A stretch of DNA of 64,000 bases from NCBI GenBank assembly GCA_964507625.1, contig CAZDPR010000001.1, positions 81,499 through 145,498 on the forward strand, read 5' to 3'. The notes under the pieces are model-generated. The model worked only from the letters and a program-made list of their open reading frames with translations. It was not told where the DNA came from and did no database searches. The first letter of the stretch is position 1. The number at the start of each line of letters is the position of its first letter. Source of the stretch: an uncultured Candidatus Saccharibacteria bacterium (GTDB taxonomy: Bacteria; Patescibacteriota; Minisyncoccia; Phycocordibacterales; UBA1006). The position numbers were made by a program, and so were the translations under genes. Positions 255-34,061 of the stretch are shown piece after piece.

Positions 255-660
255 GGGTACGAGCATGGGACAGATCATGTTCGGAGATCGCGAGAGAAAA
301 CAAAACTATCTGTCTCATTCAGGTAGTCACAATCTTCAAGTTAAGTTCCCCCGATATCAGCTCAGCGTACTGATATCAGGAATACTTAACTTGAACTCGA
401 TTTTGTTCTTTTGAGAGCCGGTTTATCGTTACGGCATGTAGGGTAAGTGGATCATAAAGGCTCCTCGAGGCCTCCGATCTGCGAATAGCTTGGGAATTAT
501 CACCCCAAGAGTTACAGGGTATGGTTCTGTGCGCACAGGATCATAAAGAACTCTGACCGACCACAACGATGAGGGGGCAAACGAGCTGATTACTCGTCTC
601 GTCTTGGTAACAAGACAAAATTGCTCCAATCGGAGAAGCGCCAATCGCGCGCTTCTCCTT
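255..660 (+). ncRNA. Candidate structured non-coding RNA (family unassigned), ~50% GC against ~33% background. Several nested hairpins, e.g. 343-391 GTTAAGTTCCCCCGATATCAG...CTGATATCAGGAATACTTAAC, 520-532 CTGTGCGCACAG, 601-616 GTCTTGGTAACAAGAC
   Basis: Sharp local GC jump in an AT-rich genome. Sits immediately downstream of promoter P1 and has no credible ORF. Flows directly into the first conserved cassette module. Confidence 0.35.
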
Positions 661-717
661 TCTATCAGGATCTCGAACTCTTTCGAGGTTCTGTAGAAAG
701 GTTGTTCTTTGAAAAAG
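632..717 (+). repeat. Cassette junction module copy 1: GC hairpin GGAGAAGCGCC...GGCGCTTCTCC plus T-run, conserved hairpin ATCTCGAA-CTCT-TTCGAGGT (670-689), CUGUAGAAA, GTTCTTTGAAAAAG (704-717)
   Basis: Recurrent module aligned by eye across 8 copies. Arms of the conserved hairpin show compensatory substitutions and position-conserved U-G wobbles on the + strand. Confidence 0.7.
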
Positions 718-768
718 TTTGGTTTGGTTATTTTAGTTTCTTTATGGAGATTAAAATAACCAAACCAG
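718..768 (+). repeat. Long perfect hairpin (17-bp stem TGGTTTGGTTATTTTAG/TTAAAATAACCAAACCA) directly 3' of GTTCTTTGAAAAAG. Homologous, with covariation, to the hairpin at 5683-5737
   Basis: Perfect inverted repeat. Compensatory changes relative to 5683-5737 (G->A paired with C->T; TTTTAG/TTAAAA -> TTTCAG/TTGAAA). Confidence 0.6.
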
Positions 769-982
769 AGACCTGATTGCTTTTTGCACAGGCCTCTCTC
801 TTCTCTTTTTTCTCATGCGTGCTTGGACAAACCCTAAGACTAGTCGTAGAACCTGAGGTCATATAAAACTTCATGATATCAGTGACTAGTATAGGAAGCC
901 GTAACTAGATTGATAAAATCTAGTGAAAACTAAATATATTTACTTGTTGAGTGAATACATTTAGATGTTTGTCCAAATCTTG

Positions 983-1095
983 CCAAGAATGAATTGTTAG
1001 TGTTTGTTAAACACGTATAATAACAGTTCATTCTTGGAAACAAGATTTTTTTATCAGGGTCTCAAATTTATTTGAGGTTCTGTAGAAAAATTCAT
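983..1095 (+). repeat. Cassette junction module copy 2 (divergent): hairpin CCAAGAATGAA...TTCATTCTTGG plus T-run, then conserved hairpin variant GTCTCAAAT-TTA-TTTGAGGT (1059-1077) and CUGUAGAAAAA
   Basis: The CGAA/TTCG to CAAA/TTTG double substitution preserves pairing, which is strong evidence for selection on RNA structure. Confidence 0.6.
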
Positions 1096-1119
1096 TTTCA
1101 AAAATTAAATAAACATAAA

Positions 1120-1398
1120 ATGAAAAACTTTAAAGGATTAACCGGTAGTGATGCAAAATTAGAGTTTGCATTGTGTGTATTACATGCAATACCTAATCAG
1201 AACACTGAGGAAATTACTCAGTTATGTCAAGAGGCTCGTGAAGCGGAGATTATTCCAGATCTTGATTTGGAAAAATTGAAAGCTGAAGCACTTGAGATTC
1301 TCCCAACTGCACAATTTTTTTACCCTACTGGTAAAGAAGCAGAAATGAGAAGGTTTCAAGATTTCCGAGACCGTATCCTTGCAATGGCAATGGAATAA
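1120..1398 (+). CDS. Hypothetical small cassette protein (93 aa from MKNFKGLTG...). The tracked ORF start at 1072 lies inside the conserved hairpin, so I moved the start to the ATG at 1120
   Basis: ORF track 1072..1398, internal ATG chosen. No recognisable domain. Confidence 0.4.
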   Translation: MKNFKGLTGSDAKLEFALCVLHAIPNQNTEEITQLCQEAREAEIIPDLDLEKLKAEALEILPTAQFFYPTGKEAEMRRFQDFRDRILAMAME

Positions 1399-1429
1399 AG
1401 GGTAGGTGATTCTAAAAAATCTACCCCTC

Positions 1430-1591
1430 ATACTCCGTTACCCCGTAAGGTAACTCCTCGCATTGGTGGCTAACAAAAATGTGGAGTATCTGTGGCACCT
1501 CTGATTACATCAGAAAAGCCACACCTGTCCTGGAATGTACTATTCCAGCTGATGAGTCCAAAAGGACGAAACAGGGTGTTCTTTGAAAAAG
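1430..1591 (+). repeat. Cassette junction module copy 3 (hammerhead variant): conserved stem UACUCC[GUUACC-CCGUAA-GGUAAC]...GGAGUA, hammerhead ribozyme, then GTTCTTTGAAAAAG (1578-1591)
   Basis: Block shared with 5540-5682. Same downstream motif and hairpin as the other modules. Confidence 0.7.
1520..1579 (+). ncRNA. Hammerhead ribozyme, type III topology. Stem III 5' strand CACCUGU, cleavage triplet GUC (1527-1529, predicted cut after 1529), stem I CUGGAAU-GUACU-AUUCCAG, core CUGAUGAG, stem II UCC-AAAA-GGA, then CGAAAC plus stem III 3' strand AGGGUG
   Basis: All invariant hammerhead core nucleotides (CUGAUGA, GAAA, GUC) are present in the correct order, with three helices of proper polarity. 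The second copy at 5610-5669 differs only in the stem I loop. Confidence 0.8.
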
Positions 1592-1593
1592 AG

Positions 1594-1647
1594 ATTGGTT
1601 TGATGAATTCAGTTTTTTCTGAAAATTGAATTCATCAAACCAAACGA
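1594..1647 (+). repeat. Long perfect hairpin (18-bp stem TTGGTTTGATGAATTCAG/TTGAATTCATCAAACCAA) immediately 5' of the next cassette ORF
   Basis: Perfect inverted repeat read directly. Same position as the hairpins at 718 and 5683. Confidence 0.55.
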
Positions 1648-1649
1648 TC

Positions 1650-1907
1650 ATGAAATATTTAATATTTGCAGCCTTGTCAACATTACTGTCTATCGGCGCT
1701 CTGATGACTTTTTCTCAAACAGATGAAAAATTCTCTCTGATATTTGGGGTTATATTTGGCGCAATGTCGATCAGTTGGTTGGTTAACTTTTATTACGACC
1801 GTAAAATAAATCGTCGTAATAAAAAAAGAATTAGCTTTGCTAATTCTTTTTTTATTGTGCTTGTTGCCAAAAATTTTCAAAAATCGTTACAAAAAATTCA
1901 TATATAG
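1650..1907 (+). CDS. Hypothetical small membrane protein (two predicted TM helices). Start moved to the MKYLIF ATG at 1650
   Basis: ORF track 1626..1907, hydrophobic stretches. The 3' end overlaps the convergent TrmB gene. Confidence 0.3.
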   Translation: MKYLIFAALSTLLSIGALMTFSQTDEKFSLIFGVIFGAMSISWLVNFYYDRKINRRNKKRISFANSFFIVLVAKNFQKSLQKIHI

Positions 1908-2628
1908 ATTTATTGGTAATAATAACAGATCTCAAACCTTTATCCCAAATGGTTATAGAAACATGATTTTTCCAAATTGAAATATTGAGGTTCGGGTTAA
2001 ATAGTGACTGGGGTAATGTACGGATCTCGCGTAACTTTGTTTTAGATCTCTTCTTCTCCTCCGCTGCTAATGGAGAATCTGACATAATCATACGAGCAGT
2101 AATATTCTTTTTTCTACGGAGATCGCCATAAGTCTTTAAACGTTCTCGAGCAACCGTAAATGTTTCTGTTGCCCCCGAAAAACGTAACACCTCGCCATAT
2201 TTTTCTTGTTCCAACGATCTAAAAAAAGTTTCTACAAAACCATCTTCACCTTCGAGATGTTCGACGTCAATTTGCTCGGAATTACCTCGTAAAGCAAAAA
2301 AGGCGCGCAGTTCAGGGAGAATGAGGTCAATCTCTAATTTCTTTTTAGTAACCAGGGCTTCCTCGTGTTCTATAAAATTTTTTAATTTTTCTGGCTTTTC
2401 AACATAAACCATTCGACGTTTACCAATAGTAGTTGTTCCCAGAACCCCTCGCTCAACGAGTTGCTCAATAGCAAGATGGATGGTAGACCGGGGAAGACCG
2501 GTTCCTTTTGCAATATCGGCAATATTTGAGAAACCATTTTTAAACAAGTAGAAAATACTTTGTTGTTCAGCAAAGTCAAAACCGATTTCTTTAAGAGAAT
2601 CTTTTAATTTTTTTGGTATTTCAATCAT
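1852..2628 (-). CDS. TrmB-family winged-HTH transcriptional regulator
   Basis: N-terminal HTH (FYLFKNGFSNIADIAKGTGLPRSTIHLAIEQLVERGVL) typical of the TrmB family. It is the only minus-strand gene inside the cassette array. Confidence 0.55.
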   Translation of the reverse strand: MIEIPKKLKDSLKEIGFDFAEQQSIFYLFKNGFSNIADIAKGTGLPRSTIHLAIEQLVERGVLGTTTIGKRRMVYVEKPEKLKNFIEHEEALVTKKKLEIDLILPELRAFFALRGNSEQIDVEHLEGEDGFVETFFRSLEQEKYGEVLRFSGATETFTVARERLKTYGDLRRKKNITARMIMSDSPLAAEEKKRSKTKLREIRTLPQSLFNPNLNISIWKNHVSITIWDKGLRSVIITNKSIYEFFVTIFENFWQQAQ

Positions 2629-2672
2629 GCTGTAAGTATAGCATTTTTATTTTAAAATGACAAATATTTTTG

Positions 2673-2704
2673 ACATTTATTAAAAATACATATAAATATC
2701 AATA
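2673..2704 (+). promoter_or_regulatory. Promoter-like TTGACA-17-TAAATA in the divergent AT-rich intergenic region between the TrmB gene and ORF 2750
   Basis: Motif read directly. Confidence 0.3.
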
Positions 2705-2749
2705 AAATAAATACTTTTTTAAAAAAGTATAACAAAAATCGTTGTTAAA

Positions 2750-2998
2750 ATGCTTGACTTATTAAAACTATTATGCTACAATGTTTTTAAGAAGATGAGG
2801 AATAACTATCCGCGAGATCCTGATTCTGTTGCTCTTTGTGAACTATTCGAAAGGAATATCCCCAGCATCATTTATAAAACGGAGATGGTGTTTGGAATAT
2901 TCCTTTCGAGGAGAAAGATTGGAAAGGCAGGTCCCTCTGCCGGTTCGGGAATTCCATGGACAGTTTTGAGCGTGCCACCGTTCAGACTCTTCGAGTAA
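2750..2998 (+). CDS. Hypothetical protein (82 aa)
   Basis: ORF track only. Confidence 0.25.
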   Translation: MLDLLKLLCYNVFKKMRNNYPRDPDSVALCELFERNIPSIIYKTEMVFGIFLSRRKIGKAGPSAGSGIPWTVLSVPPFRLFE

Positions 2999-3153
2999 TT
3001 ATTTGTTTTTACGAATAAGAACTTGATGTTGGTTTTTCAAACAAAATGGGCGGGTGAAGCAGTTCTGGTGGACGGAATCCTAGTATGGAAATTGGTAAAG
3101 GATTACGGTTAAGAAATCGTTCTCTTTTATTAAAGACCATAGTAAAGCTTCGG

Positions 3154-3244
3154 GAGAAGTGGGTGTTTTTAACAACCACTTCTCCTTTCTATCAGGATCT
3201 TAAATTTGTTTGAGGTTCTGTAGAAATATTTGTTCTTTGAAAAG
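3154..3244 (+). repeat. Cassette junction module copy 4: GGAGAAGTGG...CCACTTCTCC hairpin plus T-run, conserved hairpin ATCTTAAAT-TTG-TTTGAGGT (two U-G wobbles), CUGUAGAAA, GTTCTTTGAAAAG
   Basis: Alignment with the other copies. The arm substitutions here are tolerated only as RNA wobbles, which fixes the functional strand as +. Confidence 0.7.
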
Positions 3245-3317
3245 AGATGAAGTGAATATCTTGGATATTACCTTTTTAAACGTTTGTGTAGTATCCAGTA
3301 TATTCACTTCATCTTTA
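3241..3317 (+). repeat. Long hairpin (AGATGAAGTGAATAT...ATATTCACTTCATCT) 5' of the small ORF at 3330
   Basis: 15-bp perfect stem read directly. Confidence 0.5.
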
Positions 3318-3329
3318 AACCCATAAACT

Positions 3330-3488
3330 ATGTCCCAAAGGGAAGCACTTAAAGTAGCAGATATGTTGTTGGCCAAAAAAGGATTTAATCCTGACGGCAC
3401 CCCAAAAGGTAAGGGGCGGAAAAAGTCTCAGTCGTTCTTCGAAAGGAGGATGATCAAGACTGTCCCTATGGGTGGAAAGGTACGATAA
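3330..3488 (+). CDS. Small basic ORF (52 aa, MSQREALKVADMLLAKKGF...). Not in the ORF track because it is under 60 aa
   Basis: Correct cassette position just after the hairpin. Translated by hand. Confidence 0.2.
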   Translation: MSQREALKVADMLLAKKGFNPDGTPKGKGRKKSQSFFERRMIKTVPMGGKVR

Positions 3489-3695
3489 ACCTTTCCACCT
3501 GCATCCCTTGCAGGTTTTGACAGAGTCAAAGGGAAAATTCTAATCATCAGATCGATGTCGTTGTTGTCTATCCGTTTTACGAAAGTAAATGGTGAGCCAC
3601 AGGGAGCAGAACCTGATGAAATCATAACCAGTACGGTTGTGATCTTTATCCAAATCATGAAGCAGTTCGTGGTTTGGTAGAGAAACAGTCAAAAA

Positions 3696-3747
3696 ATGAG
3701 TTTGGTGAAATGAGGTAATTCTAGAAGCCTCACTTCACCAAACTCAC
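3696..3747 (+). repeat. Long perfect hairpin (ATGAGTTTGGTGAAATGAGG...CCTCACTTCACCAAACTCAC) ending 6 nt before the start codon at 3753
   Basis: 20-bp stem read directly. Confidence 0.5.
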
Positions 3748-3752
3748 TCACT

Positions 3753-4055
3753 ATGACTAATATGTTCGTTTCATTATCAGGATGGCAAACAGGTCGCGAA
3801 ATCGTGGAACACGATGGAAAACTGTATTTTGAGGTGGCAGAACAAGGCCACTGCAGTATCTGTCAGTCGAGGATTGATCACGTACGTGCCGTAGTTGCAC
3901 GCAAGAAATTGCAGGTAACTTATGGTCATTTACTAGATCGATTTCCGCGCGATGCACGCACCCTGTGGGTAGGATTAGAGAAACCGAAGTCAGAGATGAA
4001 TAGCGGGGAGGTGAAAGCCTTTTTCCGCGAAAACTTAGAACTTCCGATACTCTAA
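3753..4055 (+). CDS. Hypothetical cassette protein (100 aa). A C-x2-C motif suggests a possible small zinc-binding fold
   Basis: ORF track. Followed immediately by the conserved 3' element at 4070. Confidence 0.4.
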   Translation: MTNMFVSLSGWQTGREIVEHDGKLYFEVAEQGHCSICQSRIDHVRAVVARKKLQVTYGHLLDRFPRDARTLWVGLEKPKSEMNSGEVKAFFRENLELPIL

Positions 4056-4069
4056 CTTGTCGTATGTCT

Positions 4070-4260
4070 CCGGACCGGTTTCACACTACCCAATAGTACG
4101 GGTAGCCGGTTGGCAACAGAAAGTAAGTAATGCCTGCTGTGAAGCATGTATATACTGAAAAAGTGAAGCGGAGAAGTGAATGCTAAAACATTCACTTCTC
4201 ATTTTTATCAGGATCTCGAACTCATTCGAGGTTCTGTAGAAATATTTGTTCTTTGAAAAG
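4070..4260 (+). repeat. Cassette junction module copy 5, full length: 3' element CCGGACCGG..CTACCC-AATAGTAC-GGGTAG-CCGGTTGGCAACAG, terminator hairpin GAGAAGTGAATGC...TCACTTCTC plus T5, conserved hairpin ATCTCGAA-CTCA-TTCGAGGT, CUGUAGAAA, GTTCTTTGAAAAG
   Basis: Over 90% identical to 4684-4874. The 5' 55 nt also match 5404-5459. Confidence 0.75.
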
Positions 4261-4261
4261 A

Positions 4262-4312
4262 GTTTAATTGGTTACATAAGTTTTTTATGAAGATTTATGT
4301 AACCAATTAAAC
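4262..4312 (+). repeat. Long perfect hairpin (GTTTAATTGGTTACATAA...TTATGTAACCAATTAAAC) ending 10 nt before the ATG at 4323
   Basis: 18-bp stem read directly. Confidence 0.5.
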
Positions 4313-4322
4313 AAATAACACC

Positions 4323-4676
4323 ATGTCAGCTTTAAACATACATACACTGATTATTCTGAGAACACAATTTTCTAACCGATTTGAAGGTCCTAAGCCTGCG
4401 TCCCTTACCTATAGTGCAGTTTATTATGGAAATGATAGGGCATATGTTGAATATTACAATGAGAATCTTGTTGATGAAGTGGCTACACAGTGTGATTTTT
4501 GGGAGTGCGTAAACAGATATTGCGAAGAGTTTTTTATTAATGTTAAGGTTCTGGATGAGGTAGATGAAAAAGAAAAAATTGAAGAACATTTAACAAAATT
4601 AATAACTGACAAGATCGTGAAATTAGCCGGTAGACCACTCGGATCATCATTTCGAAATATTAATAAAGATTCTTAA
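4323..4676 (+). CDS. Hypothetical cassette protein (117 aa)
   Basis: ORF track. Flanked by modules on both sides. Confidence 0.4.
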   Translation: MSALNIHTLIILRTQFSNRFEGPKPASLTYSAVYYGNDRAYVEYYNENLVDEVATQCDFWECVNRYCEEFFINVKVLDEVDEKEKIEEHLTKLITDKIVKLAGRPLGSSFRNINKDS

Positions 4677-4683
4677 TACAATT

Positions 4684-4874
4684 CCGGACCGGTCTCACAC
4701 TACCCAATAGCAAGGGTAGCCGGTTGGCAACAGAAAGTAAGTAATACCTGCTGCGAAGCATGTATATACTGAAAAAGTGAAGCGGAGAAGTGAATGCTAA
4801 AGCACTCACTTCTCATTTTTATCAGGATCTCGAACTCATTCGAGGTTCTGTAGAAAGACTTGTTCCTTAAAAAG
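4684..4874 (+). repeat. Cassette junction module copy 6 (full length, near-identical to copy 5)
   Basis: Direct comparison with 4070-4260. Confidence 0.75.
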
Positions 4875-4963
4875 AGAACGAAAGCAGCTAGCAACTTATT
4901 AGATCCGGTTGATAAAACCCCACGATAAGGCGTGGAAAACTGGCATTCAGCTGGTCCGGAATT

Positions 4964-5395
4964 TTGCTTATGGAGAATATTATTCTTAATAAGACGGAGG
5001 ATTCTTCTTTCATCACTATCTCTAAAGACTTCATACCTCGATTGACTTACTTTGTTGTCAAAACATGGGACAGTTATTGGGGTGGTTATCATGAGGTCGG
5101 AGTGAAAACTCTTACCTTAATGGATAAGGATTGTGGTGTTACTCTAAAAGATCTCAAAAAGGCTATTTCGAGAAGAGGATTAGGTGCAAAGATTGTAAAA
5201 GAAAGTCATTCACATAATGGCGATGAACAATCTTTTTACTGGTCTCTTAAGGAGTGGTTCCCTGTCTATAAGATAGGTAATGAGTATTATGTCTATGCTT
5301 TTGACAAAGCTCAGTTTGGTGGTGTTGGAATTACTTTTCAACATGTAAACCATCGGGTAGCGGAAGAGCTGGATATTTTAGAGCAATTTTACTAG
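4964..5395 (+). CDS. Hypothetical cassette protein (143 aa)
   Basis: ORF track. Confidence 0.4.
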   Translation: MLMENIILNKTEDSSFITISKDFIPRLTYFVVKTWDSYWGGYHEVGVKTLTLMDKDCGVTLKDLKKAISRRGLGAKIVKESHSHNGDEQSFYWSLKEWFPVYKIGNEYYVYAFDKAQFGGVGITFQHVNHRVAEELDILEQFY

Positions 5396-5403
5396 AAGAT
5401 CCT

Positions 5404-5682
5404 CCGGACCGGTTTCACACTACCCAATAGCACGGGTAGCCGGTTGGCAACAGAAAGTACCTTGCTTGCGAGGGAAAAAGTGAAAAGGGAATCAGGTTGT
5501 GCCCTCAATAAGGAAAGACAACCACCATATATTGCTCCGTTACCCCGTAAGGTAACTCCTCGCATTGGTGACTAACAAAAATGTGGAGTAAGCGGACGTT
5601 GAACAACATCCGCACCTGTCCTGGAATGGAGTATTCCAGCTGATGAGTCCAAAAGGACGAAACAGGGTGTTCTTTGAAAAAG
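5404..5682 (+). repeat. Cassette junction module copy 7 (hammerhead variant): 3' element CCGGACCGG...GGCAACAG, then divergent linker, conserved UGCUCC[GUUACC-CCGUAA-GGUAAC]...GGAGUA block, hammerhead, GTTCTTTGAAAAAG (5669-5682)
   Basis: Shares its 5' part with copies 5 and 6 and its 3' part with copy 3. Confidence 0.7.
5610..5669 (+). ncRNA. Hammerhead ribozyme, type III, second copy. GUC at 5618-5620 (predicted cut after 5620), stem I CUGGAAU-GGAGU-AUUCCAG, CUGAUGAG, UCC-AAAA-GGA, CGAAAC-AGGGUG
   Basis: Identical core to 1520-1579. Only the stem I loop (GGAGU versus GUACU) and the distal stem III differ. Confidence 0.8.
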
Positions 5683-5737
5683 TTTGATTTGGTTATTTCA
5701 GTTTCTGTATGGAAATTGAAATAACCAAATCAAATGA
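5683..5737 (+). repeat. Long perfect hairpin (TTTGATTTGGTTATTTCAG...TTGAAATAACCAAATCAAA). A covarying homolog of the 718-768 hairpin
   Basis: 19-bp stem. Paired compensatory substitutions relative to copy 1. Confidence 0.6.
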
Positions 5738-6031
5738 ATATGAGTATTAAGCGCGCACGAGATCGTATTTGCCGAAAGGCATAGAGATTATCAAAAATCA
5801 CCCTTACACTCTTAAGGTTTTGTCATTGACATGAGTATTGGGTTTTGTCCCCATCTTACCTAAAAGATGGAGAGCCATGAAAAAGCAGATTTTCATATGA
5901 GTAAACATATTAAAAAATCCACCAAATTGTTGTGTACAGGCGTTTGGTTGGCAGGAGTTATTTTTTTATTTATTCCACGCGGAGCCAGAGTCTCTGTCGG
6001 GTTTATTTAAAAAAAAAGATGTTCTGTCATT

Positions 6032-6120
6032 GAGAAGTGTTTGCCTGGGTGAACACTTCTCTTTTCTATCAGGATCTCGAACCACTTCGAGGTTCTGCAG
6101 AAATAGTTGTTCTTTAAATC
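6032..6120 (+). repeat. Cassette junction module copy 8: GAGAAGTGTT...AACACTTCTC hairpin plus T-run, conserved hairpin ATCTCGAA-CCAC-TTCGAGGT, CUGCAGAAA, GTTCTTTAAATC
   Basis: Alignment with the other copies. Confidence 0.65.
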
Positions 6121-6597
6121 ACAAAAAACTTTAAAATGGAAACTAAAAAACCAAGGGATAGACTTCGAACTATCTAATGAGTTCTTACGCAGAACTCACC
6201 CTTTTAGTCGCTTATCAGTTCGATATTCCTGAAACGATATATGGAAGTGGCAACATCATGATGCTAGCTTAATTGTTAATTAGGTTAGAAGATTGGTGAG
6301 TTTTCGCCGGTTTAAGTGCCGGGATAGTCCCTCTCACTATAAATGTCTAGATCCGTCAAGGGTTGAGGACATAATGAGAGATGCCAAACTGATAGGGGTT
6401 ACGGAAATTAACCTCGCTCTATAAGTTTCCATGTACTGGGTTGTACAGTAAGCGAAATGAGTAAATTTTCCGTTTTTGTTCACTAAACCTTTTATTTGAT
6501 AGATTGGAAAGTTGTTAACTTTCCAATCATCATAAAAGTTTTATTAAATTCTCTAAAGAAGGCCTAATATAGGTTTTTTATTGTATTTATTTTGTAC

Positions 6598-6633: not shown

Positions 6634-6755
6634 AGTCAGTGGTGGAATTTGTTATCAAAATGACAAACTATTCCTGTTAGGAGAAAAGTCCACACAAATC
6701 TCCCTGTTAGGGGGTAAAAACAAAATCTAAAACCACCCTTCCGGGTGGTTTTTTA
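6634..6755 (+). promoter_or_regulatory. ~120-nt leader transcript from P2 ending in an intrinsic terminator (ACCACCC-UUCC-GGGUGGU plus U6 at 6732-6755), 50 nt upstream of the 799-aa gene. Candidate attenuator, riboswitch-like leader or small RNA. Contains the repeated CCUGUUAGG(A/G)G motifs
   Basis: Promoter, leader, terminator and gene in sequence. Upstream GUGGUGG (6642-6648) could alternatively pair with the terminator 5' arm. Confidence 0.4.
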
Positions 6756-6806
6756 CTGATATTATTTTTTATAGGAATCCGTTTCTTATGATATAATAAA
6801 GTTATT

Positions 6807-9206
6807 ATGAAAGAATCGTTTCTACCTGCAAAAAAAACAAATAATAATGAAATATTAATTACTCTAGAATATATTCCTGGAATGCAACCACAAGAAATAA
6901 TATTGGAAAAGTTTACCCCTGAGGAGCAAAAGGTAATAGAAGATCGCAAGGAAATATTAAAAACAATCGTAGGGGCTGTTTCAGGTAATTACTCTATTCC
7001 CGTTGTATTAGGGTTGCCTGAAAGGGTGGGAGATTCAGGTTGGCGTCATGTAAAGTTAAAAGATGGACGTGAATTCATACAACTGAATGCTCATGATATT
7101 TTAACCAAAGAAATGGATTTTTTACGGTTTGTAACAGCTCATGAGGCTGGACATCAAGCAATCACTAAATGGGATTTTATCTTTGACGATCCGGAACTTA
7201 CAGAACTATATACAAATACAACAGGATTTGCATATTTATTAAATTGCACAGAAGATCCTCGGGATAATAATTATGTTGCAGAAGTTTATGAGCCGTTTAC
7301 AGAAGTAATGAAATTAGCATATCGTTTACAAGAAGAATACACAGAAGATATGTTAATTGAAATAAAAAAGAAAATGGGGTTTATTCCAAGACATATATTA
7401 GCAGGTATGGAATATATTCAGCAATGGTACCGTGAATCTCAAACATTACCTTTTGCGATTAATTCTGATTTACCAGGTGATGTGTATGAAGTAGTTCAAA
7501 AAACATTACCATACGCAAAAGATTCATGGTGGAGATTTCCATCCAAAGAAGAGGTTGTTCGTAATCCAGACATTATTCATAAATATGCTCGCATATATTT
7601 TGATATTAATTTAAAAAAAATTTGGCCAGAATTTGCAAAATTAGTAGAAAAAGATAAAAAAGATCAACAGGTACAACAAATGTTGAAAAAGATGAGTCGC
7701 GAACAAAAAGATCAAGAAATTGAGTTGCCTCCTTGGCTTCAAGAGATTTTAAACGAAGAGGATCAAGAGTTTTTAAAAAAAATTTTGCGTGAATATTTGA
7801 AAATGCTCAAAAAGGCAGAACAGGCAGATAAAGAAGAATTGTTGAGTGATCCTGAAAAAAAACAAGAAGATTCAGATTCAGATTTAGAAGAAGGAGAAGA
7901 GGGGGTGGAGACAGGCCCAAACAACAACCCTTCTCCAGAAGAGTCTGATACAGAGAATACAGAGAATACAGGGAATACAGAGAATACAGAGAATACAGAG
8001 AATACAGAGAATACAGAGAATACAGAGAATACAGAGAATACAAAGAATACAGAGAATACAGAGAATACAGATTTACAGAAGAAAGATATTCCGTTTGATT
8101 TAGATCAATTGCCAGATGATTTAAAAGATAAATTAAGTGAAGGTATAGATAAGAATATGGACCCAGGAGAACGTGAAGAGTTAGAAAAAGAGTCAGAAAA
8201 AGCAATAAAAGAGTTAGACGAAGAGATTATTAAAAAAATACAAGACCAAACGAAAAACGATACAAAGAATTATAATGAATCAAAAAAAAGTAATAATGAA
8301 GAGGTTAAAAAAGAAGTTGAACTAAAAGATAAAAGAAAAGAAATTGAAAAAAAACTAAAAACATTTGAAGAAGGACTTGATGAATTGTTCAAATTGAAAG
8401 AAGATTTCAAAAAACAAACTGAAGTGGTTCCTGATAATAAATACCAAAAAGCGCGTCAAGAAAACTTTGAAATAATAAAAAAACTAGAAAATGATTTACG
8501 TATGATTTTTAAGAGTAGACGAGAAGGGTTGACTCAAAAAAATCTTCCCTCTGGTTCACGTATTAACATGTTTAAAAGAATTCAAGAAAAAGCACGTGGG
8601 ATTAGTGTAGTGGAATCACGAGCGTATGAACGAAAAATTTTACCTCAAGAAAAAGATTATGCAATTACGTTATTAGTAGATCTTTCCGGTTCAATGAGCG
8701 ATAAAATAGAAGAAACATTTGCCGGAGTTGTTGCAGTTACTGAATCATTGCATCGACTAGGAATCAAAACAGAAATTTTAGGGTTTAACCATCTCATGTT
8801 TGAATTTAAGAAATTTAATGAAAAAATGACAAGTAAAATACAAGATAAGATGGGTGAAATGATTAATGCAGTAAGTCAACCGGGTGCAAATGGTAATAAT
8901 GATGGTTATGCAGTACTAATTGCATCAGAAAGATTAAAAAAGACTAATGAAAAAGAAAAGATTTTAATTGCTTTTTCAGATGGTCAACCCAATCCTTCTG
9001 GTGAGTATAGTGGTGATAAATATGAGCTAACTAATGTGATTAGAAAAACTAAAGCAGATAACACTATAAAATTAGTAGGAGTTGGTTTAGGAGAAGGAAC
9101 TGATCATGTGTCGCATTATTATCCAAAAAGTGCTGCAAATATTCCCATAAATGATTTATCGAAACAATTAGCAAGAGTGATACGTGAAGCAATTGAAGAA
9201 AATTAA
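6807..9206 (+). CDS. Three-part protein: N-terminal HExxH zinc metallopeptidase-like domain (HEAGH at 7140-7154), central acidic coiled-coil linker with an (ENT)n repeat, and C-terminal von Willebrand factor A domain with the MIDAS motif DLSGS (8679-8693) and the AFSDGQP motif
   Basis: Motifs read from the translation. This architecture (putative metallopeptidase plus vWA, as in DUF2201-type proteins) is the usual partner of MoxR AAA+ ATPases. Confidence 0.7.
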   Translation: MKESFLPAKKTNNNEILITLEYIPGMQPQEIILEKFTPEEQKVIEDRKEILKTIVGAVSGNYSIPVVLGLPERVGDSGWRHVKLKDGREFIQLNAHDILTKEMDFLRFVTAHEAGHQAITKWDFIFDDPELTELYTNTTGFAYLLNCTEDPRDNNYVAEVYEPFTEVMKLAYRLQEEYTEDMLIEIKKKMGFIPRHILAGMEYIQQWYRESQTLPFAINSDLPGDVYEVVQKTLPYAKDSWWRFPSKEEVVRNPDIIHKYARIYFDINLKKIWPEFAKLVEKDKKDQQVQQMLKKMSREQKDQEIELPPWLQEILNEEDQEFLKKILREYLKMLKKAEQADKEELLSDPEKKQEDSDSDLEEGEEGVETGPNNNPSPEESDTENTENTGNTENTENTENTENTENTENTENTKNTENTENTDLQKKDIPFDLDQLPDDLKDKLSEGIDKNMDPGEREELEKESEKAIKELDEEIIKKIQDQTKNDTKNYNESKKSNNEEVKKEVELKDKRKEIEKKLKTFEEGLDELFKLKEDFKKQTEVVPDNKYQKARQENFEIIKKLENDLRMIFKSRREGLTQKNLPSGSRINMFKRIQEKARGISVVESRAYERKILPQEKDYAITLLVDLSGSMSDKIEETFAGVVAVTESLHRLGIKTEILGFNHLMFEFKKFNEKMTSKIQDKMGEMINAVSQPGANGNNDGYAVLIASERLKKTNEKEKILIAFSDGQPNPSGEYSGDKYELTNVIRKTKADNTIKLVGVGLGEGTDHVSHYYPKSAANIPINDLSKQLARVIREAIEEN
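7950..8071 (+). repeat. In-frame 9-bp tandem repeat (GAGAATACA) of about 13.5 units encoding (E-N-T)n. One unit is GGGAATACA and one is AAGAATACA
   Basis: Read directly. The minus-strand ORF 7807..8205 is an artefact of this repeat. Confidence 0.85.
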
Positions 9207-9228
9207 CAGATTTTTAATTAACTATTTT

Positions 9229-9630
9229 ATGCAAAAAAAAGAATTTCTTGATTTTTTAGAGTACACATTATCTCAAGATACTGCATCATTAGCTGTTATG
9301 AATGATATTGATGAAGTGGTATCTTTTCAGACAATTCTAGAAAATAATGAATATATTTTAATACCAAATATGTATGATTTTTTACTTACCATAGATACTC
9401 ATGGAAAGTATTACGTAATTTTAAATGAGGAAAATATTAATCCAATGTATTCATTAGTAAAACAATTTGGATCTGGTCAGATATATAATCCTGAGAATGG
9501 AAAAGCGATTATTCCTAATAAAGAAGGGTCTTTAGTAATACTTATTTCAAAAAACCTATTAAGTAAATTTGAAAATGAGCAGAATGTTTCTTTTCGGTCG
9601 ATCTGCGGGCTCATCTATCAATTAATATAG
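9229..9630 (+). CDS. Hypothetical small protein (~133 aa) between the vWA and AAA+ genes. Start placed at MQKKEF. The tracked start at 9184 overlaps the upstream gene
   Basis: ORF track 9184..9630. Tight spacing suggests operon membership. No recognisable motif. Confidence 0.4.
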   Translation: MQKKEFLDFLEYTLSQDTASLAVMNDIDEVVSFQTILENNEYILIPNMYDFLLTIDTHGKYYVILNEENINPMYSLVKQFGSGQIYNPENGKAIIPNKEGSLVILISKNLLSKFENEQNVSFRSICGLIYQLI

Positions 9631-9634
9631 TCAT

Positions 9635-11500
9635 ATGGAAAAAATACCAAGTAAAAAAACAAATGAACCGATTATTGAGACGGATAAATCTGTTTCTTAT
9701 TTAGGAGTAAATCTGTTAAAAGCAAAAAATCGTGAAGGTGCAGTAGGTCCAGAAAAATATAAATTTTATATCAATGATAAATTTCGATTAGAGTTACAAC
9801 GTGATATTGCAACAGCGTGGGCACTTAATGAACCTTATTTGTTTATAGGTGGGACCTCTATTGGAAAAACAACAACAGTTAATAAAATGTGCGCAGAATT
9901 AGGTTATGAAATGCATTATTATAATTGTACAGGAAATACAGAAGAAATGGATTTATTAGGAAGATATATACCCAATGTTCATAAAAAAACCCCTGAAGAT
10001 CCTGAGTATATTTTCCAACCTGGTCCGGTTACTCGAGCCTTAATGCAAGAGTCAGATAAGGTGAAAGTGCTTTTTCTTGATGAAATTAATGTTTCTCAAC
10101 CAAAAGTTCTGTCACTTTTGCATGACGTTATGGATTCATTAAAAACAAACACTGAATATACACTCAACGTAAAAGATGGTGAAAAAATTCCTACAGACCG
10201 AGAAAAAACAAAAATAATTGCCGCTGCAAACCCGGTATCTGGAGACATGACACATGCAAGTCCACTTTCACTAGCAACTATTCGACGTTTTACTATGCAG
10301 CGAGTTCCAGATACCTTACCTGATGAGGCTTTAAAAAATACGATTTTTAGTAAGTGTGGATTTGGGTCAATTCATGCAATTCCAGCTCCTGAGTCAAGTT
10401 ATCGTTATTCAAACCAAAAAATATTAGATAGTCGTCAATTGTCCCGTATTCCAGGAATGTCATTTATTTTGGATAAATATTTTGAATTTCATAAACATGC
10501 CTCACTTTTGTTGGATAATGGTCAAATCGGGGAAGATGATCGAGTGCAACCATTTAAGTTTGATGCAAACGAAGATGTGGACAGGGTAATTAGATTTGTT
10601 AAACGCTTCTATAATGGTGACATTAATACGGTAATGCAGGATGCAATTAAATATATTTATTTAAATCGATTATCAAATCCTAAGGATCATACAAAATTAT
10701 TAGAAAAAGCTCGAGAAATATACTATGAACCGCCTAAGGGTCAACGAAAAGGGTTAGATGATCCTCTAGATTTAGAGAATATATTATCTCTGCATGAAAT
10801 TGAAACTCTCCTACCTGATAATTTTTACGGTCCTCGTGTTGTAGAAAAAATGCTTAAAACAAGATTAAAAAAAGAAGATATACCTCCAATTCATTTAACA
10901 ATGGAAGAAGTGTTAAAAATAAAAGAAACAAATGGATCATTGATATTAAAATATAATTTTGATGCAGAAGGTAAGCCGTTAACCATTAAAAATATGGAAG
11001 AATTAGACCTTATTAATTTTGCTCCTGGAGTTAGTCGGTTTCTTAAAAGAGATCCTTTTTATACTGATGATACAGAACTGAAAAAAAAGGCAACTTGGCA
11101 AATTGTTTGGGATGTTCCCGAATCAGCAGGATTAGATATTACAAAACAGTTCGAAGTTACTGGTCATTTATACGATAAAAATACAGAAGAAATTATAAAT
11201 TCAAGTGGTGACGAAGAACGGATTACAGAGCTTAAAGATATTCATAAAAACCAAGAAAGATCAGGTATTTTTGAAACTGCTCAAGAAGTACTGTATCGTA
11301 TGGCTTTGTTTAATAAAAAAAATGCGCCTAAAGTACTGTATCCAGACGTCTTTGTTACTACTCAAAATAGAAACGGACTAGGAAAGCCGGTAAATGTTGG
11401 CCATGGAGACAATGGTATTGTAGTTAATGGGTTTGATGAAAATACAGGTAGTCCAAAAAGAATTAGTACAGTAGTTTGGGAACTACCTCCTAATAGTTGA
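9635..11500 (+). CDS. MoxR-family (AAA_5 clade) AAA+ ATPase with a ~370-aa C-terminal extension of unknown function. Walker A GGTSIGKTT (9848-9874), Walker B LFLDE (DE at 10079-10084), box VII-like DEINVSQPKVLSLLHDVMD, sensor-1 IIAAANP, arginine TIRRF
   Basis: The motif string FLDEINxxxPKxxSxLLxxMxx followed by AxANP is diagnostic of MoxR/CbbQ/NorQ-type ATPases. Gene is adjacent to a vWA-MIDAS protein. Confidence 0.7.
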   Translation: MEKIPSKKTNEPIIETDKSVSYLGVNLLKAKNREGAVGPEKYKFYINDKFRLELQRDIATAWALNEPYLFIGGTSIGKTTTVNKMCAELGYEMHYYNCTGNTEEMDLLGRYIPNVHKKTPEDPEYIFQPGPVTRALMQESDKVKVLFLDEINVSQPKVLSLLHDVMDSLKTNTEYTLNVKDGEKIPTDREKTKIIAAANPVSGDMTHASPLSLATIRRFTMQRVPDTLPDEALKNTIFSKCGFGSIHAIPAPESSYRYSNQKILDSRQLSRIPGMSFILDKYFEFHKHASLLLDNGQIGEDDRVQPFKFDANEDVDRVIRFVKRFYNGDINTVMQDAIKYIYLNRLSNPKDHTKLLEKAREIYYEPPKGQRKGLDDPLDLENILSLHEIETLLPDNFYGPRVVEKMLKTRLKKEDIPPIHLTMEEVLKIKETNGSLILKYNFDAEGKPLTIKNMEELDLINFAPGVSRFLKRDPFYTDDTELKKKATWQIVWDVPESAGLDITKQFEVTGHLYDKNTEEIINSSGDEERITELKDIHKNQERSGIFETAQEVLYRMALFNKKNAPKVLYPDVFVTTQNRNGLGKPVNVGHGDNGIVVNGFDENTGSPKRISTVVWELPPNS

Positions 11501-11624
11501 CAAATTAAATATAAAGTATATTATATGTAATAATTCTGTTCTTAAGATCTTTGAACGAGCCACATCACTTGGCTTTATAAAATTACTGTTAGTGATTATG
11601 TGAAAAATACATACGTTCTATGTA

Positions 11625-11670: not shown

Positions 11671-11701
11671 AAAAAAATACACCGTACGGTGTATTTTTTA
11701 T
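11671..11701. terminator. Bidirectional intrinsic terminator AAAAAAATACACCGTACGGTGTATTTTTT. Serves the convergent rny gene
   Basis: Hairpin plus flanking A/T runs. Confidence 0.6.
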
Positions 11702-13218
11702 CGTGCGTATTCAATAACTCGGTTTTCGCGAATGACGGTGATTTTAATTTCCCCTGGATAACGGAGATCGCGTTCAATTTTTACTGCCATATCACGCGCA
11801 ATGCGGCGTGCCTGGAGATCGTTTAATTGTTCTGGGTGAACAAATACTCTGATTTCTCGTCCTGCCTGGAGAGCATATGATTTGGTTACTCCTTGAAAGG
11901 TGTTTGCAAGTGCTTCGAGTTCGCGTAATCGTTTGAGGTAGTTTTCAAGGGTGTCACGTCGCGCACCAGGTCGTGCACCACTGATCATGTCACAGGTTTG
12001 TACAATGATTGCCTCTAATGATTCGTGTGGGTATTCATCATGGTGACTGCGCATACCAATAATTACCCGCTCATCTACTCCAAATTTTTGGAGAATTTTT
12101 ATTCCAATTTCTACATGGGTTCCTTCGAATTCGTGATCGAGCGCTTTTCCAATATCGTGAACCAATCCTGCAAATTTTGCGATATAAGGATCAGCGCCGA
12201 TTTCGCTTGCCACCATTTCACAGAGATGTGCTACCTCTAGGCTGTGTTTCAAAACATTTTGTCCATAGCTGGTACGGAAATGGAGTCGTCCAAGAATTGC
12301 AACGACCCGGGGATCGATTGTGAATATACCACATTCGTAGACGGCTTCCTCACCTTTTTTCTTCACAATTTCATTAACTTCAGATTGTGCTTTTTCTACA
12401 AATTCTTCAATGCGAGCAGGTTGGATTCTTCCATCCTTGATCAGATTTTCCAAAGCAACTTTTGCAATTTGTCGTCGAATTGGGTCAAAACAAGAAATAG
12501 TAATTTCGTTTGGAGCATCATCAATGATGAGTTCAACTCCCGCCATTCGTTCAAAAGTACGAATATTGCGACCTTCTTTTCCAATGATCTGGCCTTTAAT
12601 ATCATCGTTTTCGAGTTTTACAGTAGTTGTAGTGAGTTCTGTTGCGGTAGAAGAAGCGAGACGATTAACTGCATTAGCGAGGATTACCTTTGCTCGTTCT
12701 TTTAATCGTTCTTCTCCAAATAGTTCAAGTTTTTGCATGCGTGATTGGAGATCTTCATTGTTTTTTCTTTCAATATCATTAAAAAGATGTTCAAGTGCTT
12801 CTTGACTCGTCATGCCTGCAATTTTTTCTAACGTTTGTGTTCTAGTTTTTACGAGATCTTCATTCTTTTCTTTCAATATTCTTACTTCATCCATATGTAA
12901 TTTTAACTTTTCATAATCACGATCAAGGTCTGATTGTCGTTTATCGAGTAATTGTTCCTTACGTTCGATATGTTCTTTAGTTTTTGAGAATTCTTTTTCT
13001 CGTGTTTGTTCTAATTCTCGAGATTGAGCGAGGAGTTTTTCAGATTTTATCTCTGCTTCGGTAATAATTTTTTGCGCATCAGTTCGCGCCTGTAAGAGTA
13101 TTTCTTGCACATCGGTTTCCAGTGATTTTTTCTGAAAACGAGCAATGAATATTCTCATTACGTATCCAATTCCAATCCCAATAATTAGACACAAAACAAT
13201 GCTCAGTGTAAGTGTCAT
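11698..13218 (-). CDS. rny: Ribonuclease Y (N-terminal TM helix, coiled coil, KH domain, HD domain)
   Basis: KH motif IGKEGRNIRTFERMAGVELIID and HD motif HSLEVAHL...VHDIGK in the expected order. 506 aa. Confidence 0.85.
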   Translation of the reverse strand: MTLTLSIVLCLIIGIGIGYVMRIFIARFQKKSLETDVQEILLQARTDAQKIITEAEIKSEKLLAQSRELEQTREKEFSKTKEHIERKEQLLDKRQSDLDRDYEKLKLHMDEVRILKEKNEDLVKTRTQTLEKIAGMTSQEALEHLFNDIERKNNEDLQSRMQKLELFGEERLKERAKVILANAVNRLASSTATELTTTTVKLENDDIKGQIIGKEGRNIRTFERMAGVELIIDDAPNEITISCFDPIRRQIAKVALENLIKDGRIQPARIEEFVEKAQSEVNEIVKKKGEEAVYECGIFTIDPRVVAILGRLHFRTSYGQNVLKHSLEVAHLCEMVASEIGADPYIAKFAGLVHDIGKALDHEFEGTHVEIGIKILQKFGVDERVIIGMRSHHDEYPHESLEAIIVQTCDMISGARPGARRDTLENYLKRLRELEALANTFQGVTKSYALQAGREIRVFVHPEQLNDLQARRIARDMAVKIERDLRYPGEIKITVIRENRVIEYAR

Positions 13219-13390: not shown

Positions 13391-14911
13391 ATGAGAAACC
13401 AAAACACACTTTTCTTTTTCTTGATTATTTTTCTGTGCAGTACTCAGGTCTTTGCATCTGATGAATGTACATGCACCTATACCTATAACGGTATAGGAGG
13501 GAACTACAACCTGGGTACCAATGAGGTACTCTGTGTACAATCCGGTACACTGACTGGAAATGTGAATATCAATGGCAGCAATGTCACGATATGTATTGCC
13601 GAAGGGGCAAACTACAGTCCCAACAATTTCAATTTCATTCACGGCCTGAAAATCGTGAACCGGGGAACCTTTATTATCAATGGTGCCAATGTGAACCATA
13701 AAGGTTACATTGATAATTATGGAACTGTTGAAGTTCGGGGAAACTTGAACTATAACAATGACCTAGAGGTGAAAAATTTTGGGACGTGGATTAATATTCC
13801 CAATTTTGAATTCAAAAGGAATTCATTATTTATCAATGAGGGGTACGTGGAATGCAGGGCTGAATTTAGTTCTGAACCACAGACTTCTTTCGTGAATAAT
13901 GGGCGAATGAAAATTGTTCAGAATTTTAATCCAAACGGGGAATTTATGAATAATGGACCACTGATCACCAATGAATTCATTAACATTAATCCTCAGGCAA
14001 GACTCACAAATCAGTGCTTTCTGTATTCTGGCAAAGGGTTCAATAATAATTCGAACCACACGCAGAACATGGGATTGATTCAGACTTCACCGGGTATGCC
14101 TATACAGTTGAATAATCGGTACTGGCAAGGTGGTAGTGGAACGCTCTGCGGAGGATCACTCATTAATAATGCGGTGGTCACAGGCGATGGTTACTATTAT
14201 TTTACAGGTAATACGGTGAACCATTCCCAGTTTGGGAATGGTAATAGCAATATTCAATTCCACGATGTTTCAAACGGGGGAAATCCGTTTGATATTGAAA
14301 ATGGATTTAGTTACATTGTATCCCATCAGGAATTTGTTCCTATGGATACAATTGCAGTTAAACAGTCAATCTGTCCTGGGTTGGCCGAAATTTTACCAGT
14401 GGAGTTAGTTTCTTTCAGTGCTTCTCGTCAGGGAATGTTGATTGAAATAAGTTGGCAAACAGCTACTGAGTTCAACTCAAGTCACTTCATTGTTGAACGG
14501 TCATATGACGCGATCAATTTTGAAGAAATTGGGAGAGTAGATGGAGCAGGTACTACACTTGTTCCACACAGTTACCACATACTCGATATGGAATCAGTCG
14601 AGTCACTTGAATCGGTTGCATATTACCGATTACGACAAGTTGACTTCGATGGTCAACTTGAAGTATTTCATATCGTTGCGGTTGATTTGGGGGACGTGGG
14701 TGATTTTGAATTACCCATTAGATTTTTCCCTAATCCAACAACGGGAATGTTATATATTCCTGGTAACGATGCAGAAAAAAGACTTTTCTCAATCAATGGT
14801 TCTTTTATTATGATGACGAAAGATCCATTCATTGATATGACTGATTTTTTGCCAGGCTTATACCTCCTGGTAATAAAAAATAAAAAAGTCGAAAAGATTT
14901 TCAAAAAATAA
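13391..14911 (+). CDS. Secreted Asn/Gly-rich repeat protein (probable beta-helix) with a C-terminal T9SS-type (Por secretion tail-like) sorting domain
   Basis: Signal peptide MRNQNTLFFFLIIFLCSTQVFA. C-terminus FPNPTTGMLYIP...INGS...IDMTDFLPGLYLLVIKNKKVEKIFKK follows the Por_Secre_tail pattern (PNP, G-x-Y, terminal K-rich strand). Confidence 0.5.
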   Translation: MRNQNTLFFFLIIFLCSTQVFASDECTCTYTYNGIGGNYNLGTNEVLCVQSGTLTGNVNINGSNVTICIAEGANYSPNNFNFIHGLKIVNRGTFIINGANVNHKGYIDNYGTVEVRGNLNYNNDLEVKNFGTWINIPNFEFKRNSLFINEGYVECRAEFSSEPQTSFVNNGRMKIVQNFNPNGEFMNNGPLITNEFININPQARLTNQCFLYSGKGFNNNSNHTQNMGLIQTSPGMPIQLNNRYWQGGSGTLCGGSLINNAVVTGDGYYYFTGNTVNHSQFGNGNSNIQFHDVSNGGNPFDIENGFSYIVSHQEFVPMDTIAVKQSICPGLAEILPVELVSFSASRQGMLIEISWQTATEFNSSHFIVERSYDAINFEEIGRVDGAGTTLVPHSYHILDMESVESLESVAYYRLRQVDFDGQLEVFHIVAVDLGDVGDFELPIRFFPNPTTGMLYIPGNDAEKRLFSINGSFIMMTKDPFIDMTDFLPGLYLLVIKNKKVEKIFKK

Positions 14912-22479: not shown

Positions 22480-22485
22480 TGTATT

Positions 22486-23445: not shown

Positions 23446-23455
23446 TATGTGTATT

Positions 23456-34027: not shown

Positions 34028-34061
34028 GTATATTATTTTTTTTGTGGTATACTATAGCCAT

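Follow-up and report, generated by a model that had tools for sequence, protein, structure and literature searches.

The subject of this analysis is a three-gene operon at positions 6807-11500 of a 64,000-nt stretch of DNA, the whole of which we call the window. Gene 1 (6807..9206) encodes a 799-residue protein in which a zincin, an acidic linker and a von Willebrand factor A (vWA) domain with a metal ion-dependent adhesion site (MIDAS) follow one another, as judged from the open reading frame (ORF), Pfam CobT_C/VWA matches and a family alignment. Gene 2 (9229..9630) encodes a conserved cytoplasmic protein of 133 residues without an assignable fold, and gene 3 (9635..11500) a 621-residue AAA_5 ATPase of the MoxR/midasin clade, recognized by Pfam, that ends in a C-type-lectin-fold domain. 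All three ORFs lie on the + strand and their spacing is tight, with intergenic gaps of 22 nt and 4 nt. The length of gene 2 is counted from its ATG, where the public gene call also starts; the mechanical ORF opens at a GTG at 9184. A preliminary description of this DNA had placed three co-directional genes here, and its ORFs and coordinates, as well as the HEAGH, DLSGS, SDG, Walker B and AAANP motifs, were all confirmed. The window is chromosomal, encoding trigger factor, ClpP, NusA, RecJ, MetRS and pyruvate kinase. We conclude that the operon is a retroelement-less, selectively kept member of a three-gene cassette conserved among Candidate Phyla Radiation (CPR; Patescibacteria) bacteria.

The first 290 residues of gene 1 (6807..7676, +) are predicted to fold as a zincin of minigluzincin/M48-like type around HEAGH (residues 112-116, encoded at 7140-7154), with E149 (7251-7253) as the likely third zinc ligand. 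Structure predictions were made on single domains; the N-terminal model reached a predicted local distance difference test score (pLDDT) of 91.7, and its top fold matches were zincins. The features of a gluzincin were found, namely HExxH on a helix, a Glu ligand downstream and the zincin fold, and the zincin of gene 1 appears intact. Sequence searches place it in no described family: the domain had no Pfam, NCBIfam or PADLOC match, and a profile search of the PDB with the zincin family alignment gave none either. The DUF2201_N-type peptidase proposed earlier was not borne out, as neither M48 nor DUF2201_N was matched at E<=1 by the window protein or by 38 homologues. Of 66 homologues, 64 have HExxH. 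When homologues of the 290-residue domain were sought by word index, two matches were obtained, so that an exhaustive phmmer search was needed; this matched 170 of 1.84 billion cluster representatives, nearly all 650-850 residues long, and the domain thus appears to occur almost only fused to the linker-vWA architecture. Compared with the minigluzincins (projannalysin, proabylysin, selecase) and with M48/M56 peptidases (BepA, HtpX, Ste24, BlaR1), the gene 1 domain lacks the Pfam M48/DUF2201_N match, and it differs from them in being soluble, in carrying extra C-terminal helices and in coming, practically always, fused to a linker and a vWA domain.

Residues 291-560 (7677..8486, +), delimited by composition and by gap-rich alignment columns, form a low-complexity acidic linker with 29% Asp plus Glu and a net charge of -32, the length of which differs widely among homologues. 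Within it TRF detected an in-frame 9-bp tandem repeat of 13.8 copies (7948..8071, +) encoding (TEN)n. The preliminary description was right that an in-frame microsatellite exists and wrong in setting it next to the operon, since it is a part of the vWA gene. A relative with 87% identity (L081) does not have the repeat, and its gene 1 protein has 773 residues as against 799 in the window. A short-read contig of identical sequence (L001) breaks upstream of the vWA domain, without the repeat-containing part of the gene. Because a 9-bp unit keeps the reading frame, changes in copy number alter linker length only, and a role of the microsatellite as a phase-variation switch was dropped for this reason. 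The vWA domain itself (8604..9203, +) matches Pfam CobT_C (43 bits against a cut-off of 21) and VWA_2, and its nearest solved relative by sequence in the PDB is CobT (E 1.2e-9). Its MIDAS is formed by DLSGS (residues 625-629, 8679-8693) and SDG (724-726, 8976-8984); D625, S629 and D725 are invariant in the family alignment, S627 is at least 90% conserved, and DxSxS occurs in all 66 homologues. Motifs, linker charge and fold model agree with the original proposal of a HEAGH zincin domain joined by an acidic linker to a MIDAS vWA domain.

For the gene 2 product, searches of Pfam, NCBIfam, PADLOC and the PDB gave no match, and hhalign found no relation of its family to the ATPase and vWA families, in keeping with the earlier view of a ~133-residue protein without a known fold. 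The family alignment (53 sequences) shows a QYPTGQ-like motif. The conserved position of the gene suggests that its product is an adaptor or regulator.

The AAA_5 core of gene 3 (residues 69-219, 9839..10291, +) scored 55 bits against a cut-off of 22 in Pfam. It contains Walker A as GGTSIGKTT (residues 72-80, 9848-9874), Walker B as VLFLDE (145-150, with DE encoded at 10079-10084), AAANP (196-200) with the sensor-1 residue N199, and RRF (217-219) with the arginine pair R217/R218. G73, S75, G77, K78, T79, T80, D149, E150, N199, R217 and R218 are invariant in the ATPase alignment; Walker A was found in 59 and Walker B in 60 of 62 homologues. The nearest solved relatives of the core by sequence in the PDB are midasin (E 1.7e-26) and NorQ (E 3.7e-5), and the assignment as a MoxR-type AAA+ ATPase holds. 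What is expected of a MoxR/AAA_5 protein with a vWA partner is found here: an above-threshold AAA_5 match with complete motifs and an adjacent gene for a MIDAS vWA protein.

Behind the core lies a conserved helical region (residues 220-375, 10292..10759, +), which probably comprises the lid and an extension peculiar to the family. Invariant columns are many here and reach as far as R371, and the alignment of homologues with only 56-60% query coverage extends to this region. It is followed by a separate C-terminal domain (376-621, 10760..11497, +) that combines a small alpha/beta part with three long helices and a terminal beta-sheet. In its fold this domain is like C-type lectins and the formylglycine-generating enzyme, and it is homologous to the variable region of the target proteins of diversity-generating retroelements (DGRs). 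The structure table lists 8.4 for the Bd2740 C-terminal domain, 7.4 for PvdO and 7.1 for SUMF2, and for the solved DGR variable proteins 7.0 (TvpA), 6.0 (Mtd) and 5.7 (TaqVP). Sequence profiles gave nothing comparable: the last ~400 residues had no Pfam match, NCBIfam and PADLOC added nothing for the C-terminus, Pfam scans of all alignment members returned no consistent family, and family alignments of the three regions that lack a Pfam match, used as profiles against PDB sequences, returned only noise. The ~370-residue extension without recognizable motif, for which an effector or sensor role had been suggested, has thus to be redrawn. About 145 residues of it (230-375) belong to the conserved helical part of the ATPase, only residues 376-621 form a separate domain, and this domain is no effector; it has the lectin fold shared with DGR targets.

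Full-length homologues of the ATPase, with 33-37% identity over ~95% of its length, come nearly all from CPR bacteria and a few from DPANN archaea. A genome scan with one genome per species yielded 75 loci, almost all in CPR genome bins, in which we called ORFs and matched them to the window proteins. In 72 of these loci the ATPase gene has a vWA homologue upstream, and in 73 a small-protein homologue is placed between the two, so the order vWA-small-ATPase is the norm of the family. The gene order, which had been regarded as a peculiar reversal, is therefore no peculiarity. In some other genomes the cassette stands beside relaxase, resolvase, HNH and phospholipase D (PLD) genes.

Two kinds of additional gene were seen in relatives. 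Many carry beside the cassette a gene of ~280-365 codons for a stand-alone paralogue of the ATPase lectin domain (L017, which equals L003, L020, L023, L025, L031, L035, L038, L041, L072, L074, L079 and others); in L003, which we checked, the paralogue is a second target of the same template repeat. No such paralogue is present in the 64-kb window. L015 and L076 carry a second pair of small gene and ATPase gene.

In most relatives the cassette is accompanied by a retroelement. Downstream sequence of 3 kb or more is available for 51 loci, and in 36 of these Avd and/or a reverse transcriptase (RT) gene follows the ATPase gene, usually beginning 400-600 nt past the ATPase stop codon. In the contexts examined first, where Avd and RT genes follow the ATPase gene, a 160-nt repeat occurs at the 3′ ends of both the ATPase gene and a short paralogue and again as an intergenic copy. 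Over the family we collected 35 repeat pairs from 34 loci, in which the last ~120 nt of the ATPase ORF are copied intergenically just upstream of Avd; these pairs together have 569 mismatches, of which 548 (96%) coincide with adenines in the intergenic copy. The template copies, read in frame, encode Asn-rich peptides such as RSSDGNLVNVGNFDANGVNVN..., and the gene copies are diversified at exactly those positions. Since adenine-specific mismatches to an intergenic copy are the defining signature of DGRs, the C-terminus of the ATPase, at the ligand-facing end of the lectin domain, is a DGR variable region in this family.

Such targets have been described before. Dore et al. 2024 (PMC10907252), in the part of the article that summarizes Paul et al. 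2017, describe AAA ATPase-CLec (C-type lectin) variable proteins of CPR DGRs, and Wu et al. 2018 (PMC5758913) noted a match to the midasin AAA domain for CPR targets of their class UVR4. AAA-lectin proteins diversified by retroelements are reported to be the commonest DGR targets in CPR bacteria. The window ATPase belongs to the same protein family (homologues of 33-37% identity over 95% of the length), with an AAA_5 N-terminus and a C-terminal lectin-fold domain in both, and both appear to come from one lineage: the NusA of the window has its nearest named relative in a Patescibacteria group bacterium (59% identity). What our analysis adds to the known ATPase-lectin target is a lineage of it that selection maintains without a retroelement, and the conserved three-gene unit with the zincin-vWA protein and the small partner, neither of which is described in the CPR DGR literature covered here, Paul et al. 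2017 lying outside that coverage.

The window copy and its two closest relatives differ from these CPR targets in having no RT, Avd or template repeat nearby and a variable-region equivalent that evolves normally. The stretch equivalent to the variable region (VR; residues ~575-616, 11357..11482, +) was located by alignment with the variable and template repeats of relatives. It keeps several template-like Asn codons (PVNVGHGDNGIVVNG) and encodes PVNVGHGDNGIVVNGFDENTG.... Of the features of a DGR target, the window copy shows the lectin-fold domain, while template repeat, RT and Avd were not found within the 64 kb. The 3′ region of the ATPase gene (10700-11560) has no second copy in the window, and tblastn of the window with 25 RT and 25 Avd queries gave only noise. 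The convergent RNase Y gene (11698-13218) ends 197 nt past the ATPase stop codon, a space too short to accommodate an Avd gene or a template repeat. L081, which has the same synteny, lacks a retroelement over 10 kb downstream of the ATPase gene and up to 10 kb upstream. A 53%-identical relative in a different context (L082-L084) lacks one over 7.6 kb (L082 and L083) or 10 kb (L084) downstream and at most 10 kb upstream. Among the 51 loci, 15 others are likewise without a retroelement.

This arrangement could mean that the cassette lost its function with the retroelement and is turning into a pseudogene, a decaying relic, as might be said from the missing retroelement, from the microsatellite that expanded inside gene 1, and from ratios of nonsynonymous to synonymous substitution (dN/dS) four to five times those of the neighbouring housekeeping genes. 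Compared with L081, dN/dS is 0.22 for the whole vWA gene (0.15 in the zincin part and 0.30, the highest of the gene, in the linker), 0.18 for the small gene, and 0.14 for the ATPase gene (0.07 in its AAA part), as against 0.04 for the flanking RNase Y and NusA genes. Values of 0.14-0.22 are nevertheless well under 1, all three reading frames are intact with every catalytic motif kept, the repeat keeps the frame and belongs to a linker that varies in length throughout the family, and the arrangement without a retroelement recurs in the 53%-identical relative with its different genomic context. We regard decay as extremely improbable, and with motifs intact and dN/dS low the pseudogene was dropped as a candidate. 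The VR-equivalent stretch shows ordinary divergence from L081 (74.5% amino acid identity, dN/dS 0.31). The dN/dS values place all three genes under purifying selection, and together with the intact motifs they indicate that the cassette is functional without ongoing diversification.

The rates of synonymous substitution (dS) are a separate matter. Cassette genes have a dS of ~0.5 to L081, and the RNase Y and NusA (18860-20107) genes on their flanks one about twice as high (1.0-1.3). One possible explanation is that the window and L081 lineages exchanged the cassette at a later time than its flanks, another that the AT-rich codon usage of the cassette distorts the dS estimate.

Motors of the AAA_5 type that work with a MIDAS/vWA partner are known as midasin/Rea1, NorQ-NorD, CbbQ-CbbO and CobS-CobT. 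The cassette resembles them: midasin and NorQ are the best solved sequence relatives of its ATPase and CobT of its vWA domain, its MIDAS domain, like those of midasin and CobT, is preceded by an acidic linker, and the MIDAS motif is intact. It differs from them in placing the vWA gene first, in adding a zincin and a lectin-fold domain, and in lacking a client for ribosome assembly, nitric-oxide reductase, RuBisCO or cobalt chelatase. A housekeeping chaperone of CobS-CobT, NorQ-NorD or CbbQ-CbbO type, inserting metal into or otherwise maturing a metalloenzyme, would be suggested by the CobT matches of the vWA domain, which are its best in both Pfam and PDB, by the weak NorQ match of the ATPase, and by a homologue (P0024) that carries a cobalamin-pathway name in one source. 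Only the vWA domain is CobT-like, however: the CobT equivalog TIGR01651 scored 26.6 bits against a cut-off of 759. Moreover, no CobN, Nor, Cox or RuBisCO gene adjoins the cassette among the window ORFs scanned or in the orthologue gene tables examined, so that the absence of a substrate enzyme nearby, noticed at the outset in the window, extends to those orthologues, beside which no maturation client is conserved. Neither a fused zincin nor a lectin-fold domain belongs to any known chelatase or maturase, and the neighbour that is conserved is a retroelement that hypermutates the ATPase tail, which would be senseless for one fixed client. A chaperone is thus very improbable, and the cobaltochelatase or NorQD-type maturase was dropped for want of a client gene and with an equivalog score far under the cut-off.

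We lean towards reading the cassette as a cytoplasmic ligand sensor coupled to an ATP-driven transducer and a vWA-docked zincin effector, with a specificity that in the window copy is fixed. The lectin domain would be the ligand sensor carried by each subunit of a ring-forming ATPase, as DGR biology suggests. The vWA protein would dock through its MIDAS on the ATPase ring or on a client, by analogy with midasin, NorQ-NorD, CbbQ-CbbO and CobS-CobT, and would tether the minigluzincin/M48-like zincin by its long acidic linker. ATP hydrolysis would remodel the bound partner, again as in those four systems; ligand binding, coupled to this remodelling, would activate or position the zincin, and a target would be cleaved. 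The 133-residue protein could be an adaptor, an inhibitor or a ligand of the MIDAS, a guess from its conserved position alone. Because its VR-equivalent is fixed and evolves normally, the window copy would recognize a constant ligand. The most likely role, in our analysis, is surveillance or conflict, in which a phage, mobile-element or host-derived molecule would be recognized, by analogy with the NTPase sensor systems that DGRs diversify and because a hypermutated cytoplasmic sensor fits a changing foreign ligand.

The cellular location bears on this reading. The maximum 19-residue Kyte-Doolittle hydropathy is at most 1.38 in each of the three proteins, and the scan detected no signal peptide or transmembrane segment in any of them, from which a cytoplasmic location is predicted. 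A factor for attachment to the cell surface of a host, the usual proposal for retroelement-diversified CPR proteins, with the lectin domain binding host surface structures, would accord with the linking of DGR targets to cell-cell and cell-particle binding and with the life of CPR bacteria as episymbionts (bioRxiv 10.1101/2020.04.01.020958). Yet the proteins carry none of the segments for which we scanned, and the lectin domain forms one protein with an ATP-dependent motor, for which cytosolic ATP is required. Such a factor is therefore improbable, and the surface adhesin was dropped once export signals had not been found.

A closer competitor of the sensor-effector reading has an identical parts list. 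The cassette may be a substrate-selective AAA+ protease for the cell's own proteome, with no part in conflict and functionally an analogue of FtsH or Lon, in which the lectin domain selects, the ring unfolds and the zincin degrades. This would suit the housekeeping neighbours in the window (RNase Y, ClpP, trigger factor, NusA) and the purifying selection that keeps the cassette without its retroelement. To our knowledge, ATPases of the MoxR/midasin clade are remodellers and none is a processive unfoldase, which speaks against a protease of this kind; the hypermutated selector of most relatives fits a changing foreign ligand better, and the relaxase, resolvase, HNH and PLD genes that adjoin the cassette in other genomes also point away from it. 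We consider an own-proteome protease unlikely, though well ahead of attachment or metalloenzyme maturation.

Several points weigh against the sensor-effector reading itself. Every functional step beyond domain identity is one that we infer, and the small protein has no assignable fold, so that its role is a guess. PADLOC-DB v2 contains no known defence system that the cassette matches: genes 1 and 2 had no match, and the ATPase only a weak generic AAA match (mad8, E 3e-4). Nothing ties the system directly to phage; relatives occur on only three of 2.9 million viral contigs, and the matches found by tblastn in the GenBank phage collection were all of a generic AAA kind. A retroelement elsewhere in the genome, of which 64 kb are visible, could act in trans, which is disfavoured because the VR-equivalent stretch diverges in the ordinary way. 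Finally, parts of the cassette description may already be published (Paul et al. 2017).

The sensor-effector reading brings the cassette close to the vWA-MoxR 'ternary' conflict systems of Kaur et al. 2020 (PMC7159879), of which DGR-diversified versions are known from multicellular bacteria (Dore et al. 2024, PMC10907252). Shared are a MoxR-clade ATPase, a vWA protein, a third conserved component and a peptidase effector; some ternary systems likewise have a lectin-fold sensor diversified by a retroelement, and for both, ligand sensing, ATP-dependent remodelling and effector release have been proposed. The differences are substantial. The third component of the cassette is not a VMAP, iSTAND, FtsH or beta-propeller protein, and no VMAP family rose above noise, VMAP-M5 having appeared at E 0.18 for a single one of 38 vWA N-termini. 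In the cassette the lectin domain is joined to the ATPase, in ternary systems to the vWA protein; the peptidase is a zincin fused to vWA in the former, and a trypsin or caspase on the VMAP in the latter. The hosts are ultra-small CPR bacteria (and a few DPANN) rather than the multicellular bacteria in which ternary systems are strongly enriched, and CPR RTs form a clade separate from those of the multicellular-bacteria systems. The cassette therefore resembles the ternary systems without belonging to them.

A wider proposal, which we put forward tentatively as possible though doubtful, is that the CPR cassette is a retroelement-reprogrammable cytoplasmic machine for recognition and proteolysis; the window copy and its relatives would then illustrate how a useful specificity can become 'germ-line fixed' after loss of the retroelement. 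In function such a machine would be a receptor that is somatically diversified and has a protease wired to it as effector. If this were true, the retroelement target that is commonest in CPR bacteria would serve as sensor in a conflict or surveillance system of three parts and not as an attachment factor.

The three-gene unit offers the AAA-lectin family a concrete candidate mechanism of sensor, motor and protease, and it draws CPR retroelements closer to the NTPase 'antigen sensor' systems of multicellular bacteria. Copies without a retroelement, such as that in the window, are natural experiments, in which a fixed ligand-binding surface should ease the finding of ligands.

Pattern scans of the flanks of the operon yielded candidates for regulatory signals. 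Upstream lies a terminator-like G+C hairpin, AAAACCACCC-TTCC-GGGTGGTTTT (6729..6752, no strand assigned), which has T runs on both flanks and could thus terminate transcription either way. It is followed by a promoter-like site (6768..6797, +) with TTTATA, an 18-nt spacer, TATAAT and an extended -10 TG, ending 10 nt 5′ of the gene 1 ATG. Promoter-like sites are not enriched regionally (22 observed against 28.6 expected), for which reason site and hairpin are candidates only, and the terminator-gated promoter of the preliminary description comes down to pattern matches. A further terminator-like hairpin (11672..11699, no strand assigned) is shared by the ATPase gene and the RNase Y gene that converges on it. 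A defence role had also been argued from the terminator, from the microsatellite and from the array nearby; these arguments carry little weight, and PADLOC shows no known defence system.

The array in question, upstream of the operon (window 644-6131), consists of small ORFs interspersed with several repeat families: an 84-nt unit present six times with a conserved hairpin (GATCTCGAAC...TTCGAGGTTC), a 58-nt unit present three times (4068, 4682 and 5402) and a 194-nt unit present twice. No array repeat family matches Rfam at E<=0.1, and the repeats could be structured RNAs of a new kind or ends of mobile elements. Two motifs resembling type III hammerhead ribozymes lie at 1522-1577 and 5613-5668 (+), with CUGAUGAG...CGAAAC and closed stems I and II; they scored 41.2 bits (E 1.7e-6) against Rfam RF00008, under the gathering score of 48.5. 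Each sits within a longer duplicated module (1433-1591 and 5535-5682).

Some other genes of the window deserve mention. At 13391-14911 (+) a gene conserved in the 87% relative encodes a 506-residue protein with an N-terminal signal-like segment and a weak match, under the cut-off, to the type IX secretion sorting domain Por_Secre_tail (E 8.4e-5), which is unexpected in a probable Patescibacteria genome. Three tandem paralogous genes at 21772-25015 (+) share near-identical signal-peptide-like N-termini (MKTNIFNFILIGTLL...), with 90-99% identity in the DNA, and contain further internal repeats. A 698-residue protein encoded at 45567-47663 (+) combines a cytochrome cd1-type beta-propeller (E 3.8e-73) with a cytochrome b5-like domain; such a respiratory-type haem protein is unusual for a reduced CPR-like genome, and its gene, 34 kb from the operon, is not conserved beside orthologous cassettes. 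A 963-residue protein (33996-36887, +) has a C-terminal domain of TraG/TraD coupling proteins (E 1.4e-4, at the threshold), and may thus mark a region of conjugative or type IV secretion-like character at about 30-41 kb.

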